Source of the DNA: an archaeon
Lineage (GTDB): Archaea; Asgardarchaeota; Thorarchaeia; Thorarchaeales; Thorarchaeaceae
Length of the DNA stretch: 32,000 nt
Direction of reading: 5' to 3'
Assembly (NCBI GenBank): GCA_024275415.1
Contig: JAJRZD010000035.1
Span: 1-32,000 of the forward strand
Position 1 is the stretch's first letter; each line of letters opens with the position of its first letter. Position numbers and translations under genes: made by a program. This document shows positions 20,130-30,695 of this stretch, piece after piece. The notes under the pieces are model-generated. The model worked only from the letters and a program-made list of their open reading frames with translations. It made no database searches and had not been told where the DNA came from.

Positions 20130-21368
20130 ATGAGAACTCTTACAATCCCTGAACTCGAGAAGTGGTATCGAAAGAACCTCACAAAGAAAAGCAAGGACTT
20201 CCTCAAGCATGCTGAGAAGAGTTACAAGACCGTGGAACAGGCTCTACGGGACATCAAAAGGGTAGCTGCCGAGCTGAAAGATGTCAGTGGCGAGACAGAA
20301 GCAAAGGAAGAGGGAACTGCCACTCGTTTTGCGAACAAGATTGATGGTATTGTTGCAGATTTCGATGTGAAGAAGGATATAACCTATGCGAGTACTGAAG
20401 CCATGCAGTCTGAAATTCAGTATCTTATCCAAGAGATTTGGGGTGCAGGTGCTCGATGGATCCGGCGGATGGACAAGAAATACAAGAACATCATCAAATC
20501 ACTGGATGTCTACATGAAGGAACTAGCTAGCGAAATGAAGAAGATCTCCAAGTTGCTTTACGAGTATGGCTGGATTAAGGACTTGGAACGTATCGGAACT
20601 CGTATCGAAACCATGCGCGAGATTACTTATGGCACTGAGGCATATGAGGAACAAGTCAGGACTATCCGGATGAAGATTAAGCAAGCCCAAGAAGAGTATC
20701 TGAAGAAGAAATCAGAGTTCGATACTTTTAGGGAGCAGTCCAATGTTTCCGAATTGCTATCACTGGATGAAGAACTTGAACGCATTTCCAGCCTACTTCG
20801 GATGAAATTGAACACCTTGAGGAAAACTGTGAAGAAGTTCAATCAGGCCAATACGGGAATTCGGATATCCCCCGCTGGCCAAAAAGCACTAACGGAGTAC
20901 TTCGAGGATCCATACGTTGCAATCGTTTCCGAATCTGAAGGGTATCCCGATCTCATCGAGGGATTGGACGGGCTCAAGAAGGCTATTGAAAGTGGTGCAT
21001 TGAAACTGAAGGATCGATTGGCTCGAAGATCCCTGGAGGAGATAGATCTGATCGCCAATGGTTCACTCCGCGACCTACAGGCGAAAGCGAAAGACATTGA
21101 GGACAAGCGGACAAAATATGCAGGCTCTGATGTCTACGCGAAGAACAAGGAACTGCAGGCTGCTGTTGACGAAGCCAAGAAGAATTTGGACTATCATAAG
21201 AATGACCTCCTTCGTGTTGCAGACGATATAAAGAGGGAAATCGAAAAATTTGAGGATTTCAAGTCCCGTGTTGAAACCGAGATCAATGAGGCTTTCGACG
21301 AGAAGATCTCAATCAAAGTAGAGAAGCTTGAACTGATTCCATTGCTGGAAAAATGCAAGGTTGATTAG
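20130..21368 (+). CDS. Hypothetical all-helical/coiled-coil protein (412 aa)
   Basis: K/E/L-rich heptad-like segments throughout; no catalytic motif seen. Confidence 0.8.
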   Translation: MRTLTIPELEKWYRKNLTKKSKDFLKHAEKSYKTVEQALRDIKRVAAELKDVSGETEAKEEGTATRFANKIDGIVADFDVKKDITYASTEAMQSEIQYLIQEIWGAGARWIRRMDKKYKNIIKSLDVYMKELASEMKKISKLLYEYGWIKDLERIGTRIETMREITYGTEAYEEQVRTIRMKIKQAQEEYLKKKSEFDTFREQSNVSELLSLDEELERISSLLRMKLNTLRKTVKKFNQANTGIRISPAGQKALTEYFEDPYVAIVSESEGYPDLIEGLDGLKKAIESGALKLKDRLARRSLEEIDLIANGSLRDLQAKAKDIEDKRTKYAGSDVYAKNKELQAAVDEAKKNLDYHKNDLLRVADDIKREIEKFEDFKSRVETEINEAFDEKISIKVEKLELIPLLEKCKVD

Positions 21369-22322: not shown

Positions 22323-23405
22323 ATGTCTTCAGAAAATGACTTTTCGCTTGTGAAGGAACTAGAGAAAAAGGTCGAAACCCTGACAAAAGAGCTCGAAACG
22401 CATACTGAGAAACTAGCAGCTCTTGACAAAATTCACGAATTATCCAAGAAGATTGATGCTCTTGCAAATGATTTGGAATCCATTAAGACCAAGGTTGATG
22501 ATCAGACCAAACTCGAAGAGATTGCAAAGTCTATTGAAGAAAAGGATGTGGATGGGCTCTCATCAAAGATTGACAACCTCGCCTCAAATCTTGACAGCCT
22601 CTCATCAAAGCTTGGAGAAGTAGAGGCAAGTGTTACGACAATGAGGGACTCGAAAGAAACGGAGGTTCTGTTCAAGAAACTGGATGACATCCTTATCGCT
22701 GTGACAGACCTGAATTCTGTGGTGGACGAATCACTGTCTTCCAGTAAGAGTAGCCTGATTGATGAGAAGATAGAGAGCATCTCCAAGTCCACTATGGATA
22801 TTGCTAGCAGCGTCGACCAGTTGCGGGAAAGTAGCAATACAGAAGTGTTAGGCAAGAAGATTGATGATTTGCAACACTACGTTGCAGGTCTGTCGGTATT
22901 AGAGGAAAAAGTCGGTGAAATCTCCTCGTCATATGCTGAAACCAAGGAAATAGTAGGGATAATTGTTCGGCAACTTGATGACATTGAACGCAAGTATAAC
23001 AAAGCCCTCGATGAGATTGGGCAAGCCATGGAATCGGTCAGGTCTCTTGTTGAAGGAAGGGTGATGCCAGTATCTGAAACCCCGAAAAAGTCTCCGAAGA
23101 AACCTTCTACCAAAGAACCTAAGCCAAAGATTGATGCAGCCACCGTCGATGGGCTAATGAATGCTCTTTTGAAAAAGGTCAAGCCACAAACTGAGGCTAA
23201 AGAGATGGCAAAGGCTTTGGAGGAAGTCCGAGACAAGCTCACCACAATGATTAAAACTCACTCTCCAGTCTTCCATCAGTTTGGAACTCGTGCACGAGAA
23301 CTCAAATCATACCCTCCAACTGCTACACTGAATGAAAATGACATCGCTAGGCTCAACAAGGATCTCCGTGACTGGACCGCCAAGCTCAAAAAGCTTGCAA
23401 GTTAG
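22323..23405 (+). CDS. Segmented coiled-coil protein with a Lys/Pro linker and a C-terminal helical domain
   Basis: Recurring L.KK(I/L)D.L units; ETPKKSPKKPSTKEPKPK linker; ~90-aa helical C-domain. Confidence 0.8.
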   Translation: MSSENDFSLVKELEKKVETLTKELETHTEKLAALDKIHELSKKIDALANDLESIKTKVDDQTKLEEIAKSIEEKDVDGLSSKIDNLASNLDSLSSKLGEVEASVTTMRDSKETEVLFKKLDDILIAVTDLNSVVDESLSSSKSSLIDEKIESISKSTMDIASSVDQLRESSNTEVLGKKIDDLQHYVAGLSVLEEKVGEISSSYAETKEIVGIIVRQLDDIERKYNKALDEIGQAMESVRSLVEGRVMPVSETPKKSPKKPSTKEPKPKIDAATVDGLMNALLKKVKPQTEAKEMAKALEEVRDKLTTMIKTHSPVFHQFGTRARELKSYPPTATLNENDIARLNKDLRDWTAKLKKLAS

Positions 23406-23593: not shown

Positions 23594-24394
23594 ATGCATC
23601 TAACGAGTCACAACGATGATCTGGCCAACCGACTGAATCTCCTCTATCCTGACGCAGATCGCCAGCTGGCAAAGGAACTCATGGAACTCCACGAGAACAA
23701 ATGCAAACACTGTCAGGAGGATCGGCTGAGTTGTACTGTCCGTCCTGCCTGCAAGAACCGTAATTTTCTCAATACTCTGATAGAGCTAGGAATTGAGGCA
23801 CAGGATTTGCCAGCATTCTGCTATTCTGTCTATATCAATCAGATTGGACGCTACATCTCAGAACGAAAGGGCAGACCGATGACTGATAGACGCATTCTAA
23901 TCAAGGATTTTCTAGCAACGCTGAAAGTCAGCTCGATACGACATTTCAATAGCAAATTCAAGAAGGAATGGAAGAACTACGTTTCAGTAACACAAAAGGA
24001 TCAGATGATTGTCACAGGGAATAACATGCTCTTCCATTTTGATTTCTCAAGAGGAATTGTCCATGTTAATCCCGATAACGAACAGATTGACAGCTTTGAC
24101 ATCTTGAAACATTACACTGAGGTATTCTCACAGCTCTTCAAAGTGTCCGTGGATCTGCAAGAGATAACCACTAATTGGTGGGAACTCCTGCTCACTTTGA
24201 ACGGAACGCCTGAGAAGAACAAGCTGGATGTTTTCCTCGGGAAGCTTCCTCGGGGAATCACAAATCACAGCGTTGTGAAAGACAAGAATGCAACAAGAAT
24301 TCTGCTTGAGGTATATGGGGATTGCCAGAGCAATCTCCTGACAGTAAAAGATGTGCGTGAGCTATTCAACTCCTTCAAGAGCATGGTCTCTTGA
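23594..24394 (+). CDS. Hypothetical protein with an N-terminal Cys cluster
   Basis: CKHC...C.....C...C in the first 80 aa; 266-aa ORF. Confidence 0.75.
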   Translation: MHLTSHNDDLANRLNLLYPDADRQLAKELMELHENKCKHCQEDRLSCTVRPACKNRNFLNTLIELGIEAQDLPAFCYSVYINQIGRYISERKGRPMTDRRILIKDFLATLKVSSIRHFNSKFKKEWKNYVSVTQKDQMIVTGNNMLFHFDFSRGIVHVNPDNEQIDSFDILKHYTEVFSQLFKVSVDLQEITTNWWELLLTLNGTPEKNKLDVFLGKLPRGITNHSVVKDKNATRILLEVYGDCQSNLLTVKDVRELFNSFKSMVS

Positions 24395-24427: not shown

Positions 24428-27400
24428 GTGTTAAGAGTGAGCAAGACTGTGCAAATCAGAGCAATCCCATTGCTGAAAGAAACCCTTTCCCTCTCAAAGA
24501 ATGAAGCGACAGTATTACTACCAGTCATTCGTGGTGGTAACATGACGGTTGGAGCAATCGCCACAGCTGTCAATCTGCCCATGAGCAAGGTGTCTACTGC
24601 GCTCAAGTCCCTTATCAAGAGAGGGCTTGTCGAGGAGATAGATGGTATATTGCCATTGTATCAAGCAAACCCTCCGATTCTTCCGATGGTTGACACACTT
24701 GAGGGCTTCGTATCTGATACTGAAAAAGTGATGACCAAGACAACGGCGACTGTCCAAAAGCTTCAGGAATCTATCGAGAAAACAGTAGGTGGGGTCACAA
24801 AGACGAATGAGGAACGTTTCAATGCGCTCAATGAAGCCTTTGAGGAATACGAAACCGAAGTAGCCTCCAAGGTTCAGTCACACGTTGCTACTATGACCGG
24901 TATCGCATCAGATGTCCTTGCACAGTATTCGCAAAAGATACAAGGCGTCCTAGAATCGCTGAATGTTTCTGTCGAGGATAGCATTGGCGAACGACTTACA
25001 GTCCTTCAGAAGGAGTTGGATGATAGTCAAAAACAACTTGCAAAAGATACAAAGAGGATTCTGGGTGACTTCGAGAATTGGCTTCTTCATGAAAAGGCAT
25101 CAGCGGTTTCATCAGTCACTGACGCACGCGAGAGATCACAGAAGTTGCTCGATGCTACAAAGAGCGTGCTTGAAGAATCCTTACGAAGTTCTGAGAATGC
25201 CCTTTTGGACAGTATTGATAATATTTCCACATTGCTGGGGACAAAGGCACTTGAGGTGTCTAATCAAATATCTGAAATGCTCTCCGAACTTGCCGAATCA
25301 TTGAAACAGAAAAGTCTTAACTTTGTCACTACTGCGAGTCAGAACCTGTTAGCTGCCAGAAAATCAATTTCCGACACCGCCGCGGAAGCAAGGGACAGCA
25401 CAGAATCCCAGGCTGAAAGCACACAGAAACGATTCGATGACGCTGTAGCCTCGACCGAAGCTTTCACAGAAGCGATAGCACTCTGGAAAGAGGAAGTCAC
25501 CAATTACATGAACTCGGCATCGGGTTCGGTTCTTGCCCAGCTTGAACAGCTGAGCTCGTCAGAGAAGGCATTCCTTGAAGTAATTCGTTCGTCACTCACC
25601 GGGCACCTTGAAAAAACGAGTGCTTCGATTGGTGAGGAATACAAGGCTGTAAGGTCTCTCGCGAGAAATCTTACCGCAGATACCGACTCGCTCATGAGCG
25701 AAGCCCGAGCCTCCGTTCTTGAGCTTCTACAAAATGAAGTATTAGAGAACAAGAACCGTCTTCAGAAAGCAAATGAGATGTTATTCAATGACATCTCTGT
25801 TTGGAATGAAAAGACAACAAAGGCGATCGATAAGAAGATCATGTCTACTGTAAAGGAAATCACCAATGTCCTTGATACCGAAACATCCGAATTGAATGCA
25901 TTGACTGATAACATCTCGAGCCGTCTAAAGTCGTCCATCTCAAGCATCGTAACCACAACCGAAACCAAGAATGAAGCGGTATTGTCTGATATTCGACGAA
26001 TCGCGAATGCCTATGAATCAGGTATTGAGAAAAAACTACGTGAGATATCAAACAGGCATGTCACTGCAATCCAAGAACAGGTGCAGGATGCAAAAACACT
26101 CTATGAGAGCTTGAATAAGCGATTGAATGAGCGTCTTAGCGAGAGCATAGCAGTTTTGAACTCGAAAATAGCTCGTGCGCAAAAGGAGATTGACTCCAGT
26201 ATTGTAGAACAGGTCGAACGTATCGAAACGCATGCCAATGATATGCGTGCTGATTTCCATGCCCGTGTTGAGGAAATCACCCAGCAGTTCATCTCAGTGA
26301 CTCAAACCATCGAGTCAACATTCAACGGGCTTATAGCCAGTCAGGTTGTCGAAGCCAAAGACCTGATTGCATCCGCTCACACTGAGTTCAAGACCTCGAT
26401 GAAATCGGAGATGGAATCGTTGGACAGCGATTCTATCAAGTTACAACAAGAGTTCGCATCCGAGATTGGCATGCGGATTGACACCGTTACAGAATCCAGC
26501 ACATCTCTAAAGCGCACACTGGACGATTTCATATCCGAAAAGAAAGTCGAAATCAGTAAACACATGGAAGTAGCATTATCAGAAATCGAAACCTCTTTAT
26601 CGGGTGCACAAGAAAGCTTGGCAAATATTGAGGGCATTACTATAAAGCAGTTTACCGACGACGTCCGCAGGTTGTCACACGAATTCTCGACATCTGTGAC
26701 GGGTGCACGAGATAACATAAGTGAGCGATTGAGAGTGTTGTCCCGTGAAACCGCTGATATCCTTGCCAAGAACGCGGCAAATGTCAAGACCACTGTAGAT
26801 GCCTATCTCTCAGAAGAAACGGAATCCATGCAACGAGTTCTTGGAGAAACCAGCACAAAGCTGGATCGGTTAGCCGCCGCCAATATCAGGAAGACGACTG
26901 AACAAGTCGAGGCGTTCTATGAGAAAATCGAATCAACCCAAACGACAACATTGGCTGAGCGAGTGAAGGCAAAGGATGAGTTGATGTCGATCATGGAAGA
27001 GCGCAGAAAGGAGAACATATTGGCATTCGATGCAGCATTGGTCTGGATCGATTCTGCAACTGATAATGTTTCGACCACATTGGAAACACTGGGCTCGAAG
27101 TTGAGTTCTGAGGTTATTCACCTCCAACAAGGATTAAGAAAATCCGCCGATGGTGCATTGAACGTTTTCAGAGAACGTGCGCAATCTCAAGTTTCCCAGT
27201 TGGAAGAAATCGGGAATTCTCTAATTGAACACATCGAGAAGACACTACAATCAACATCGACAGACCTCAGCGAGTCTAGTGTGGCTACTGTGAATGGAGC
27301 AATCGATTCCCTAGAAACATTGCCTGACAGGGTGAAACAGGAAATCCATCAGATAGGAAACGATGCTTTGGCGGAAAGCAAATCCCAACTACAAAAGGTA

Positions 27401-28330
27401 GAGGCTTCTTGGAATGATAAACTACTGGCGTTAGAGACCTCGACAAGTGCAACATTTGATGAGGTCGATACTCTTTTGGAACGAGTGAATGAAAAAGTAA
27501 CAATGGAGCAGACTAGGGTTGTAGAGCAGATACAGCAGGCCGCCATCATCTCAAACCAACACGCAACAAGGAGATTCGAATCTGTAGGTATCGACCTAAA
27601 GGCTGTATTGAGCAGCTCGACTTTCGAGCTCATTGAGAATATGTCTTCAGATGTGAATGTGTCTACATCTCTTCTTCAAGAACAGCAAAGCACATGCTTT
27701 GAAGACATCACGGCTGCAACAGGCGCCCTTCGACAAACAAGAGCAGAGATGCTCAAGGCCATAACCAATGAAACAAACGAATCCCTTGGATCATGGGCAA
27801 ACCAGGCCCGTGATTCGAATATGAAGTTGAGATCGATAATCCAAGACATGAATGCAGCGGTGATTGAAGCGGCACGGATCACAGCGAGGATGCTGATGGC
27901 AATATCCAACTCCTCAAAGGAGATACAGCATCTGCCGTCCGAGAACACATGGTATCTTACGGGCAAAGATGAGGTCTGCGCACATATCCACGATATGTCC
28001 ATGAGAGCAACGAAATCAATCTTGATATCCACACCGGATTTGGACTGTCTAGATCTAAAGAAGCTTGCAAAAGTAAAAACCCCAATCAGGCGGATCATTG
28101 TAATCCCACAATCTGAAGAGAGGAACCCTGATCTTGATTTGCTGAATGGATGGCGAATCTGGGAGCTGCCTGACCCAGTCCTGCTTGCACTGGCTGATGA
28201 TACCGAGATACTGATTGGAGGTCAATCATCTCTCGATGCGCCTCTCTGCATAGTATCAAGAAACGAATCATACCTCCGGCTCTTCAAGGAGGTCATCGGT
28301 CCGAAGATTGTGGCAGAGGCACAAAAATAA
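24428..28330 (+). CDS. TrmB-family protein: N-terminal winged HTH, ~1100-aa helical rod, C-terminal TrmB effector/PLD-like domain
   Basis: LSKNEATV...G.MTVGAIA....P.SKV..AL.SL..RGLV....G....Y.A.PP is a TrmB wHTH. WYLTGKDEVCAHIHDMSMRATKSILISTP is a TrmB C-domain start. The middle is S/E/T/L-rich with 11-residue periodicity. Confidence 0.8.
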   Translation: MLRVSKTVQIRAIPLLKETLSLSKNEATVLLPVIRGGNMTVGAIATAVNLPMSKVSTALKSLIKRGLVEEIDGILPLYQANPPILPMVDTLEGFVSDTEKVMTKTTATVQKLQESIEKTVGGVTKTNEERFNALNEAFEEYETEVASKVQSHVATMTGIASDVLAQYSQKIQGVLESLNVSVEDSIGERLTVLQKELDDSQKQLAKDTKRILGDFENWLLHEKASAVSSVTDARERSQKLLDATKSVLEESLRSSENALLDSIDNISTLLGTKALEVSNQISEMLSELAESLKQKSLNFVTTASQNLLAARKSISDTAAEARDSTESQAESTQKRFDDAVASTEAFTEAIALWKEEVTNYMNSASGSVLAQLEQLSSSEKAFLEVIRSSLTGHLEKTSASIGEEYKAVRSLARNLTADTDSLMSEARASVLELLQNEVLENKNRLQKANEMLFNDISVWNEKTTKAIDKKIMSTVKEITNVLDTETSELNALTDNISSRLKSSISSIVTTTETKNEAVLSDIRRIANAYESGIEKKLREISNRHVTAIQEQVQDAKTLYESLNKRLNERLSESIAVLNSKIARAQKEIDSSIVEQVERIETHANDMRADFHARVEEITQQFISVTQTIESTFNGLIASQVVEAKDLIASAHTEFKTSMKSEMESLDSDSIKLQQEFASEIGMRIDTVTESSTSLKRTLDDFISEKKVEISKHMEVALSEIETSLSGAQESLANIEGITIKQFTDDVRRLSHEFSTSVTGARDNISERLRVLSRETADILAKNAANVKTTVDAYLSEETESMQRVLGETSTKLDRLAAANIRKTTEQVEAFYEKIESTQTTTLAERVKAKDELMSIMEERRKENILAFDAALVWIDSATDNVSTTLETLGSKLSSEVIHLQQGLRKSADGALNVFRERAQSQVSQLEEIGNSLIEHIEKTLQSTSTDLSESSVATVNGAIDSLETLPDRVKQEIHQIGNDALAESKSQLQKVEASWNDKLLALETSTSATFDEVDTLLERVNEKVTMEQTRVVEQIQQAAIISNQHATRRFESVGIDLKAVLSSSTFELIENMSSDVNVSTSLLQEQQSTCFEDITAATGALRQTRAEMLKAITNETNESLGSWANQARDSNMKLRSIIQDMNAAVIEAARITARMLMAISNSSKEIQHLPSENTWYLTGKDEVCAHIHDMSMRATKSILISTPDLDCLDLKKLAKVKTPIRRIIVIPQSEERNPDLDLLNGWRIWELPDPVLLALADDTEILIGGQSSLDAPLCIVSRNESYLRLFKEVIGPKIVAEAQK

Positions 28331-29162: not shown

Positions 29163-29301
29163 GTTACCCTGTCCTCTCATCAAATACCTAACAACTTCTA
29201 TAGGTGGGACTCATACTCACAAAACTTATTCATCAATGTGAGTAATGACTATTGTTCTATAGGCACATTGCCTAGTTAAATGAACGGGGGACTGGTGAAT
29301 C

Positions 29302-29763
29302 ATTCCCGACGACAATAACGAGAATGGAACTGACGACTCGAAGGACAAATATCTTTTCAAAGTAGCAGTCATCGGGCCCGATGACCAGTTATTGGAACAG
29401 GTTCTTTCAATTGTGAATGAAGCGGCACTCTCTGTTGACGGTGTCCGTATTGGGATTGCCAAGATGGATGACGAGGACTCGCGTGTCCAAGCAGTCACAT
29501 GGTCGCCCCAAAGTTCCGCGTTGGACATTCTTCTGTGTATGACTTTTGCCGGCACAAGTGCTGCTGTTATCGTCATGCCCGAAGCTGATCCAATACTCGA
29601 AACGTCATATCGCAATGAAATACGTATGCATCTAGGAATCGGCACACCTACCCGGCTTCTTCTAGTCGAAACCGAAATCGACGAGTCAAAACGAACTGAA
29701 ATCATGGATGTGTTTCAGGATCTGTACAAGGAGCTGCTCGAGAAAAGGGCGCGCTCAAAATAA
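29302..29763 (+). CDS. Small-GTPase-fold (Rab-like) protein lacking G1/G3/G4 motifs; apparent ATT start
   Basis: YLFKVAVIG, SVDGVRIG...VQAVTWS, TFAGTSAAVIV follow the Rab strand/helix order. GGTGA (29294-29298) precedes ATC/ATT. There is no ATG/GTG/TTG in frame before 29392. Confidence 0.6.
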   Translation: MPDDNNENGTDDSKDKYLFKVAVIGPDDQLLEQVLSIVNEAALSVDGVRIGIAKMDDEDSRVQAVTWSPQSSALDILLCMTFAGTSAAVIVMPEADPILETSYRNEIRMHLGIGTPTRLLLVETEIDESKRTEIMDVFQDLYKELLEKRARSK

Positions 29764-29828
29764 CATAATCCCCCTATGATGGAAAGCCTTTTCTCATTAT
29801 CTTCACCTGCGAAACTTGGTGCCTTCTA

Positions 29829-30695
29829 ATGAGTCCAGAGAATAGACGGTCTGATGATTATTGGATGGGCGTACGCGATGCCCTGCGAATGGTTGATTCA
29901 TTTCTCCGTTGGTCAAAGATGAACCCTGATCGAGCAAAGCCTCTTGAGGATTTTGTTCGTGACGGCCTTGTGGCAGCTGCGAAGCGATGTGAAAGCTGCC
30001 TGCATAAAGAGCTGGGTGTTGACTTCACATCCGATGAGGGAACTGAAACATCCGACATTTCCGAAAGTGCTGAACTTTCTGAGATAGAGGATACCGACTA
30101 TGCTGAAGATGTACCGGCACCAACCTTTGAACCAGTTTCTTCTGAAATAGTACTGGAGCCAGCCGGCACAGATGAGACCTATGAGATTCCAATCACGATA
30201 GAATCCGATAGTGAAGATATTGAAACTGCTGATGACACTCCAAGTATGGATTCCCTCGGCATCCCTTCTGAGGGGATTGAAGATGATGAGTCTGTCATCT
30301 CGGGTAGCCCACGAGACTTCTCTGATGACTTTGAGCTTGTAGAGCCCGACCCACTGGTCATCAAACCTGAAGATGAGGAATCTTCATATGAAGAGCCATC
30401 GGAGCCTCCTATCGATGAGATTTCTGTAGAGCGTCCCCGATATGCTTGGGAGATACCAGTCGCAGGATCAAAATCGGATGAGCACGTTCCAGTGGATTCC
30501 CCAGAACCCTCTTCCCCTGCAAAGGAATGGAGTCCCCTTGATGAGCCCTCACCCGAAGACATCGAAGAAGAAACTCCCGATGAACGCGAAGACTCAGCCC
30601 TAGAATCACCACCTCCCCCACCTCCTCCGCCCGAAACCGAAGAGAGTGAAGATGAACGCAGACGAAGGGCGCGTCGGCTGTTCTTCGGTGGGTAG
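29829..30695 (+). CDS. Acidic, largely disordered protein with an N-terminal helical domain (CESC), a Pro8 tract and a basic C-terminal helix
   Basis: D/E/S/P-rich middle; PPPPPPPP at 30609-30632; ends EDERRRRARRLFFGG. Confidence 0.78.
   Translation: MSPENRRSDDYWMGVRDALRMVDSFLRWSKMNPDRAKPLEDFVRDGLVAAAKRCESCLHKELGVDFTSDEGTETSDISESAELSEIEDTDYAEDVPAPTFEPVSSEIVLEPAGTDETYEIPITIESDSEDIETADDTPSMDSLGIPSEGIEDDESVISGSPRDFSDDFELVEPDPLVIKPEDEESSYEEPSEPPIDEISVERPRYAWEIPVAGSKSDEHVPVDSPEPSSPAKEWSPLDEPSPEDIEEETPDEREDSALESPPPPPPPPETEESEDERRRRARRLFFGG

Follow-up and report, generated by a model that had tools for sequence, protein, structure and literature searches.

What role could be played by a gene that sets the two ends of a TrmB-type regulator about 1,080 residues apart? 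The question is raised by an open reading frame (ORF) in the 32,000 nucleotides that we analyzed (hereafter the window; positions 1 to 32,000 of contig JAJRZD010000035.1, GenBank assembly GCA_024275415.1). An earlier note, made from the letters of the window alone, had described the product as a TrmB regulator split by a rod of hendecads (11-residue repeats) and had imagined a DNA-binding head on a very long rod or hairpin. The product, here called the rod protein, is apparently a conserved structural protein with an architecture for which we found no description; the literature yields work on TrmBL2, TrmB and hendecads and no such arrangement. In the reading that we favor, and to which we give an even chance, it is a TrmBL2-type protein whose pairing helix has been expanded to a fold-back hendecad rod and which serves as a DNA-associated tether or spacer of fixed length.

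The frame lies on the + strand at 24428-28330, as do all features described below unless stated otherwise, and runs from GTG 24428 through 1300 uninterrupted codons to the stop. Because the motif GGCGGTG lies 7 nt upstream of GTG 24437, and because the database record and all orthologues begin there, three codons later (MSK...), GTG 24437 is the likely start codon; the gene would then span 24437..28330 and encode 1297 amino acids (aa), with orthologue lengths of 1295-1302 aa. Residue numbers are nevertheless counted from GTG 24428 as residue 1 throughout. The names of homologues place the protein in Thorarchaeota, within the Asgard archaea (Promethearchaeota).

Both ends of the rod protein are TrmBL2-like, with a wHTH (winged helix-turn-helix) at the N terminus and a PLD-like domain at the C terminus. 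TrmB and TrmBL2 share a domain order of wHTH, dimerization helix and C-terminal domain (PMC4877046) in proteins of 264-360 aa (PMC4158304). The N-terminal domain (residues 17-83; 24476..24676) matched the Pfam family TrmB, PF01978, with 42.8 bits, which passes the gathering threshold of 25.6. A search of the PDB with the rod protein N terminus as a single sequence gave no match, and a profile of the first 125 residues built from 14 orthologues found TrmBL2 (5bpd) as the best hit with an E value of 6e-7, followed by TrmB (3qph) at 4.6e-5.

The C-terminal domain (residues 1172-1300; 27941..28327) was recognized by its fold. The C terminus of the rod protein itself had no Pfam match, PF11495 (Regulator_TrmB) was matched weakly by 4 of 16 orthologues (best E value, 3e-4), and a PDB search with the sequence profile of the domain found nothing. 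An AlphaFold model of residues 1131-1300, built on 16 orthologues, showed a long helix followed by an alpha/beta domain (predicted local distance difference test [pLDDT], 85; predicted template modeling score [pTM], 0.67). Foldseek placed TrmBL2 (5bpd_C) at the top of the matches to this model (E value, 1.5e-8), together with PLD/Nuc-fold proteins and TrmB, the latter as 2f5t with a root mean square deviation of 2.6 Å over 127 columns and likewise as 3qph. Since no His is invariant in the alignment of the domain, and the HxK(x)4D (HKD) motif of PLD enzymes was not found in it, the model describes a noncatalytic PLD-like domain. The sugar-binding subdomain with its Gly320/Glu326 site is absent: the protein stops ~130 residues past the rod, and the model holds a single PLD-like domain. 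The architecture of TrmB and TrmBL2 (wHTH, amphipathic pairing helix, PLD-like domain) is thus present by fold, with weak support from sequence. The earlier note had named a TrmB wHTH and a TrmB effector-like domain at the two ends; the first stands as proposed, and the second is more exactly TrmBL2-like, lacking the sugar-binding part.

Between these domains extends a helical rod of ~1,080 residues (87-1165), close to the ~1100 that had been estimated, which makes up ~80% of the protein. The hydrophobicity spectrum of residues 95-1150 contained a single sharp peak at 3.66-3.67 residues, where a peak at 3.67 had been predicted, with a normalized power of 75-82 versus ~1 by chance; at 3.5 residues, the heptad period, the power was 0.1-0.3. 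Residues 465-700 alone gave a hendecad power of 27-37. All 16 tested orthologues peaked at 3.665 with a power of 79-111 (power at 3.5, ≤1.2), and the hendecad peak was also present in further representatives of the family. The note had cut the rod into 11-mers and had seen a hydrophobic residue at position 3 of almost every one, and at 6/7 and 10/11 of most. This pattern was borne out: from residue 465 onward, 18 of 21 repeats have a hydrophobic residue at position 3, and across the family the fraction of hydrophobic residues is 0.71 at this position, 0.33 and 0.61 at positions 6 and 7, and 0.57 and 0.27 at positions 10 and 11, with all others at ≤0.13. This register composition is an a/d-e/h hendecad core. 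With a period of 11/3 (3.667), such a core and no heptad signal, the rod has the properties of a hendecad coiled coil.

The local phase of the repeat was flat over residues ~83-300, slipped by one residue at ~303-335 (from ~2.4 to ~3.4 residues; 25334..25432), with an amplitude dip at 303, and was flat again to ~1140. The 11-mer frame N-terminal of residue ~320 is accordingly offset by one residue. Ser, Thr and Glu are abundant in the rod, whose hydrophobic seam is narrow (~27% hydrophobic). The net charge of the rod is -57 in this protein, and the mean net charges across orthologues are -31 and -25 for the two arms and -4 for the C-terminal domain. Its 1,056 rod residues include one proline (one or two in the tested orthologues). 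Neither a long-range charge periodicity, as used for staggered lateral assembly in the myosin rod, nor higher-order sequence repeats were found when the rod was searched for them.

The length of the rod is nearly invariant. Across 38 orthologues with 21-58% identity, residues 9-1168 were free of insertions and deletions (indels), save for one 1-aa deletion and, in one lineage, an insertion of 232 residues. Conservation is unevenly spread along this stretch. The central block (residues 595-690; 26210..26497), which contains the only mid-rod helix break of the AlphaFold model (619-621), is more strongly conserved than any other part of the protein, the terminal domains included; T618, Q620 and F621 at its symmetry center are invariant in an alignment of 16 sequences and nearly invariant in 36. 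Two conservation islands, at 177-220 and 1035-1056, stand out from otherwise variable surroundings. They correspond to a conserved break in the second arm at residues 1044-1050 (27557..27577; adjoining E1051 and G1054), which is also marked by mirrored pLDDT dips and which faces the patch L193/E196/D198 of the first arm (residues 193-199; ~25004-25024). Lying ~150 residues (~22 nm) from the head, this site may be a joint, an elbow or a docking site.

Antiparallel pairing of the two halves, centered on F621 and joining residue i to residue ~1242-i, is strongly supported. In an AlphaFold monomer model of residues 1-1200 (36 sequences; pLDDT, 68), residues 87-618, 622-1043 and 1051-1165 formed helices, which were interrupted at 619-621 and 1044-1050 and nowhere else, and the pLDDT fell below 50 at 617-621. 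When reflected about i+j=1241, the pLDDT profile correlated with itself at r=0.93, and from this symmetry and the breaks we read the model as a hairpin, which agrees with the fold-back that the earlier note had suggested for structure prediction to examine. Arm 1 is the continuous hendecad helix 87-618 (24686..26281), also delimited by the Fourier, phase and register analyses, and arm 2 comprises helices 622-1043 and 1051-1165 (26291..27922), antiparallel to it.

Further lines of evidence (conservation, covariation, register and duplication) are independent of the AlphaFold model. The smoothed conservation profile was mirror symmetric, with r=0.75 over 533 pairs and an optimum at i+j=1245 (detrended r, 0.59-0.66). 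Mutual information with average product correction, based on ~29 effective sequences, peaked along the antidiagonals i+j=1244, 1241 and 1238 (z=6.0, 4.9 and 5.5); each of these ranked first among 45 offsets of the same hendecad phase, and the average over an 11-wide band peaked at 1243. The peaks held up when compared with entropy-matched decoy partners (z=5.2, 4.6 and 3.8; 0.574 versus 0.530 for the best of 65 control offsets). Register arithmetic gives the same answer: the core classes (residue number mod 11 equal to 5, 9 or 1) map onto themselves only if i+j is 10 mod 11, that is 1242, and F621 then falls exactly on the symmetry center. The near-invariant length is explained by this pairing, because each residue has a set partner on the other arm and single indels are not tolerated.

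The exceptional lineage with the 232-residue insertion provides an additional line of evidence. In this lineage (P0040; 1532-1537 aa, nine clustered sequences from several contigs of up to 527 kb), the rod carries a tandem duplication with a period of 232 and 171 of 229 residues (75%) identical between the copies, equivalent to residues 505-736. The duplicated block is symmetric about 620.5. The duplication is recent and covers exactly the central self-paired block, and duplicating such a block is the one kind of large insertion by which every i/1242-i pair is preserved. The new center, at the duplication junction, has diverged to the Gly/Ser/Thr-rich sequence DTGASASTS. Two other placements of the insertion, at a hairpin apex near 734 or as a duplication of 554-785, were ruled out by direct self-alignment.

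Mirror-paired length changes were also found in a sister orthogroup, here termed Loki-type, which comprises 117 sequences of 750-962 aa, many of them from Lokiarchaeota (P0092, P0182-P0297), and which we aligned to an 853-aa member. Here, all indels in the rod form equal-length mirror pairs with i+j=770-784: 11/11 (five placements), 18/18, 22/22 (three placements), 44/44 and 62/62. Unpaired indels occur only at the center, where they measure 3-4 residues (386-389) and a single residue (397). This loop-like center is flanked by conserved glycines (G385 in 113 and G394 in 105 of the 117 sequences), and both its glycines and its variable length fit a hairpin apex. It is also rich in Phe/Trp and Lys (P0092 residues 385-399, e.g., KKG-FFWMGKKKKYK) on a very acidic rod and looks like a membrane- or nucleic-acid-binding tip. 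The rod center of the rod protein's own orthogroup (the Thor orthogroup) differs in being nonbasic. A further comparison, between the Thor orthogroup and a group of 1302-1308 aa, has ~15% identity, and that alignment is too noisy for the placement of indels.

We then analyzed the distribution of the protein by searching the C-terminal domain profile exhaustively against 1.84 billion representative proteins. The search returned 128 proteins of 59-1794 aa; in those longer than ~300 aa the domain is always C-terminal, nearly all of them show a periodicity of 3.65-3.69, and the full-length ones begin with a helix-turn-helix. They come from Thor-, Frey-, Sigyn-, Hel-, Loki-, Hermod- and Hodarchaeota, the sole exception being a fragment labeled Bathyarchaeota. 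At an E value of ≤1e-5, the domain is present in 202 of the 301 sampled genomes of the phylum, including 73 of the 90 that are of high quality and 67 of the 76 that belong to the same taxonomic family, and the ORFs of the rod family have lineage-typical lengths of ~760, 838, 857, 1030, 1300 and 1795 aa. The taxonomic survey that the earlier note had proposed thus revealed more than its description of a split TrmB implied: the ends do belong to the TrmB family, but the description undersells a protein whose orthogroup belongs to a large family that spans the Asgard archaea and in which each lineage keeps a fixed length of its own.

A second member, P0180 (1002 aa), is encoded in the same genome on another contig (C63, L007:4791-7799, + strand). 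It consists of an acidic N-terminal tail, a wHTH, a hendecad rod rich in Ser, Thr and Glu, and a PLD-like domain, and its orthogroup (999-1007 aa, 37-40% identity) likewise has an indel-free rod. The gene upstream of P0180 (P0181, 254 aa) encodes a membrane segment and is unrelated to the gene that precedes the rod gene in the window.

That gene (23594..24394; 266 aa) ends 42 nt before the likely start of the rod gene. Its product, here called the five-Cys partner, carries the invariant residues C37, C40, C47, C53 and C76 and an FCY motif and may have a metal or Fe-S site; searches for a Pfam or NCBIfam family, a PDB relative or a convincing Atlas neighbor yielded none. In Thor loci, homologues of the partner immediately precede the rod gene, and the adjacency recurs in distant Frey- and Helarchaeota-type loci whose neighbors are otherwise unrelated. 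Judged by their coordinates, the two genes are adjacent in seven families of the phylum (f1, f2, f3, f7, f15, f21 and f28) and unlinked in two (f9 and f12). The partner was found in 216 of the 301 sampled genomes, nearly always as a single copy.

According to the explanation that we favor, the amphipathic pairing helix that links wHTH and PLD-like domain, originally short, would have been expanded to ~1,080 residues with an 11/3 repeat. Its halves would pair about F621 most likely within one chain, giving a two-stranded fold-back coiled coil of ~80 nm; one end would carry both terminal domains together, an arrangement that TrmBL2 also has, and the other the highly conserved apex. The rod would act as a rigid structural arm of fixed length, with a head that, like TrmBL2, would be seated on DNA. 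A binding partner, another copy of the protein or the co-encoded five-Cys protein might be held by the apex or by the joint near 195/1047, so that the overall role would be that of a chromosome-associated tether, spacer or bridge and not of a sugar-sensing regulator. An ~80-nm hairpin is the likeliest topology because the unpaired indels of the Loki-type orthogroup are confined to the Gly-flanked central loop.

Several observations weigh against this explanation. DNA binding by the wHTH is not assured, because the recognition-helix residues Tyr50/Asp51 of TrmB and TrmBL2 are not kept and the domain is weakly basic (mean net charge across orthologues, +2.5). In the profile alignment to TrmBL2, Tyr50/Asp51 align to the variable residues Ser56/Thr57, and the TYD motif of TrmBL2 stands opposite V55-S56-T57, positions that vary in the family. 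The conservation mirror taken alone is modest, with z at ~2.5-3 versus other offsets. As to topology, covariation, mirror-paired indels and the central duplication are predicted equally by a hairpin and by an antiparallel homodimer, and a monomer run of AlphaFold must turn intermolecular contacts into a hairpin. The Thor center has neither Gly nor Pro at 617-625, and the hydrophobic seam and the phase run through it unbroken, as they would in a continuous helix lying on a dyad. In TrmB, moreover, the pairing helices are described as zipping together antiparallel between chains, F81 with I91' and F84 with L88' (PMC4158304).

These points lead directly to the strongest competitor, an antiparallel homodimer, which we regard as doubtful, although as the one rival with a serious claim. 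Two continuous helices of 1,080 residues with F621 on the dyad would form a rod of ~157 nm, each end combining the wHTH of one chain with the PLD-like domain of the other, and two DNA sites would be held a set distance apart. Such a rod would derive directly from the TrmB dimer by stretching; the pairing helices of TrmB are reported to form an antiparallel zipper with domain-swapped DNA-binding domains (PMC4158304), and the pairing evidence is identical to that for the hairpin. The Thor orthogroup has no central helix breaker, with the amplitude of the repeat, like its phase, unbroken through 621, and the P0040 duplication requires that the former center became an ordinary coiled-coil helix. 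Yet the new center of P0040 turned Gly/Ser/Thr-rich, the Gly-flanked loop of variable length in the Loki-type orthogroup suits an apex, and a single wHTH per end would forfeit the paired-wHTH grip on DNA of TrmB-family dimers. Among antiparallel coiled coils that extend over several hundred residues, the known ones (SMC, Rad50 and MukB) are intramolecular, which also counts against the dimer. A complex prediction with two copies of the central block (505-737), run without controls, scored 0.01, which weighs neither for nor against self-association. Set against each other, the hairpin is the probable topology and the dimer a substantial minority possibility.

The other explanations fare worse. 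Could the rod protein be an ordinary sequence-specific regulator of the TrmB type, with a rod for oligomerization or for looping between distant operators? The wHTH is of the right family, and the conserved upstream gene might be a regulatory target or a co-regulator. However, the protein ends after the PLD-like domain like TrmBL2, without an effector-binding subdomain; with the recognition Tyr/Asp not conserved, it is the rod center and not the wHTH that is most conserved, and ~80% of the protein is a length-constrained rod retained in the 202 genomes mentioned above, so that we consider this role improbable. A parallel, in-register homodimer or oligomer, acting as a 157-nm ruler with the wHTHs at one end and the PLD-like domains at the other, would be compatible with the fixed length and with the fact that hendecad coiled coils can be parallel. 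It predicts that there is no i/1242-i covariation, no conservation mirror and free 11-residue indels, all three of which fail, and it separates the wHTH from the C-terminal domain, unlike in TrmB and TrmBL2; its probability is very low. Lower still, if only slightly, is that of an amphipathic 11-mer helix of the apolipoprotein, LEA or perilipin kind, lying lengthwise on lipid or membrane and linking it to DNA. The earlier note had raised apolipoprotein-like lipid binding, and the Pfam family Apolipoprotein does match with an E value of 6.8e-21, as does the 11-residue periodicity. The match, at 75.3 bits, is below the gathering cutoff of 90 and is explained by the common 11-mer periodicity. In addition, the single Pro leaves no proline-punctuated 22-mers, the net charge is strongly negative, there are no Lys-rich interface positions, the hydrophobic stripe is narrow, and the arms coevolve and need length-matched indels for which a surface-bound helix would have no use. 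The suggestion of lipid binding was therefore not upheld.

The rod protein can be compared with several known systems. TrmBL2 (PF0496/TK0471; 5bpd, 5bpi, 5bqt and 5box), a chromatin protein of the Thermococcales, has the same domain order, also without a sugar-binding subdomain, and is the best PDB match for both ends. It differs in its length of 264 aa and in its pairing helix, which has a few tens of residues instead of ~1,080 residues of self-pairing hendecads, and the identity between the C-terminal domains is 13-15%. TrmB of Pyrococcus furiosus (3qph and 2f5t) shares the PF01978 wHTH, a PLD-like first half of the effector domain and pairing helices that zip antiparallel (PMC4158304), but it has an additional C-terminal sugar-binding barrel (G320, E326) and no long rod.

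With SMC, Rad50 and MukB, the rod protein shares, in the favored reading, a long antiparallel fold-back coiled coil in which N- and C-terminal parts form one head, matched and conserved arm lengths, conserved discontinuities, and a DNA-associated head, the last being a prediction here. The working principle of these proteins, an antiparallel fold-back arm with length-matched halves, applies to the rod whether pairing is intra- or intermolecular. They differ in possessing an ABC ATPase head and a hinge or Zn hook: Pfam and NCBIfam searches of the rod protein gave no SMC/Rad50 family match or ATPase motif, and no Cys is present at the center. There is no homology. The SMC-like shape without an ATPase that the note had imagined fits the antiparallel pairing of the halves, by which wHTH and C-terminal domain come to lie at a common end, and the resemblance to SMC/Rad50 is in arm design only. 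Compared with the arms of SMC proteins, which are ~50 nm long, the rod is longer, and its repeat is almost exclusively of the hendecad type. Very long prokaryotic rods with 11-residue-based periodicity are also formed by bacterial proteins of the Scy/FilP type and by tetrabrachion; unlike the rod protein, these are parallel assemblies without DNA-binding heads, with no evidence of homology. Apolipoproteins A1, A4 and E (PF01442) resemble the rod in their 11/22-residue amphipathic periodicity, whereas the rod is acidic and its arms pair with each other.

Asgard archaea are the closest prokaryotic relatives of eukaryotes, and the organization of their chromosomes and cytoplasm bears on the origin of eukaryotic cell architecture. 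In most sampled genomes of the phylum, a large, conserved and single-copy-like gene joins the head of a chromatin protein to a rod whose length stays exact to the residue across long divergence, a constraint on length otherwise seen where geometry is the function, as in SMC arms, myosin and intermediate-filament rods. The mirror-paired indels represent an unusually clean natural experiment on the matching of coiled-coil arms, and the family is an expressible target for asking whether Asgard cells use DNA tethers of fixed length. A broader proposal, which we put forward as a speculation that is probably wrong, is that the family is a phylum-wide analogue of SMC/Rad50 arms without an ATPase. DNA-anchored fold-back rods with lineage-fixed lengths of ~35 to ~110 nm would dock by their apices, for example through a basic and aromatic loop resembling a membrane-binding element in the Loki-type proteins or through the five-Cys partner in Thor. 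If this is true, the rods would keep the chromosome a fixed distance away from the membrane or other DNA, as by a primitive nucleoid-to-envelope tether.

The remaining neighbors of the rod gene offer some minor observations. Downstream in the window (29226-30695), ORFs of 159 and 288 aa had no Pfam match. Upstream, two genes for coiled-coil or helical proteins of 360 aa (22323-23405, + strand) and 412 aa (20130-21368, + strand) flank a gene for D-aminoacyl-tRNA deacylase; their periodicities are heptad-like or mixed (peaks at 3.49 and 3.61) and not hendecad. The order of genes for 411 aa, DtdA, ~350 aa, ~267 aa and the rod protein is kept in three Thor loci, where synteny is generally high, and these neighbors were seen in Thor loci only. 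In a single Helarchaeota-type locus (L009:2677-3975), an Orc1/Cdc6 gene lies directly upstream of the partner and rod gene pair.

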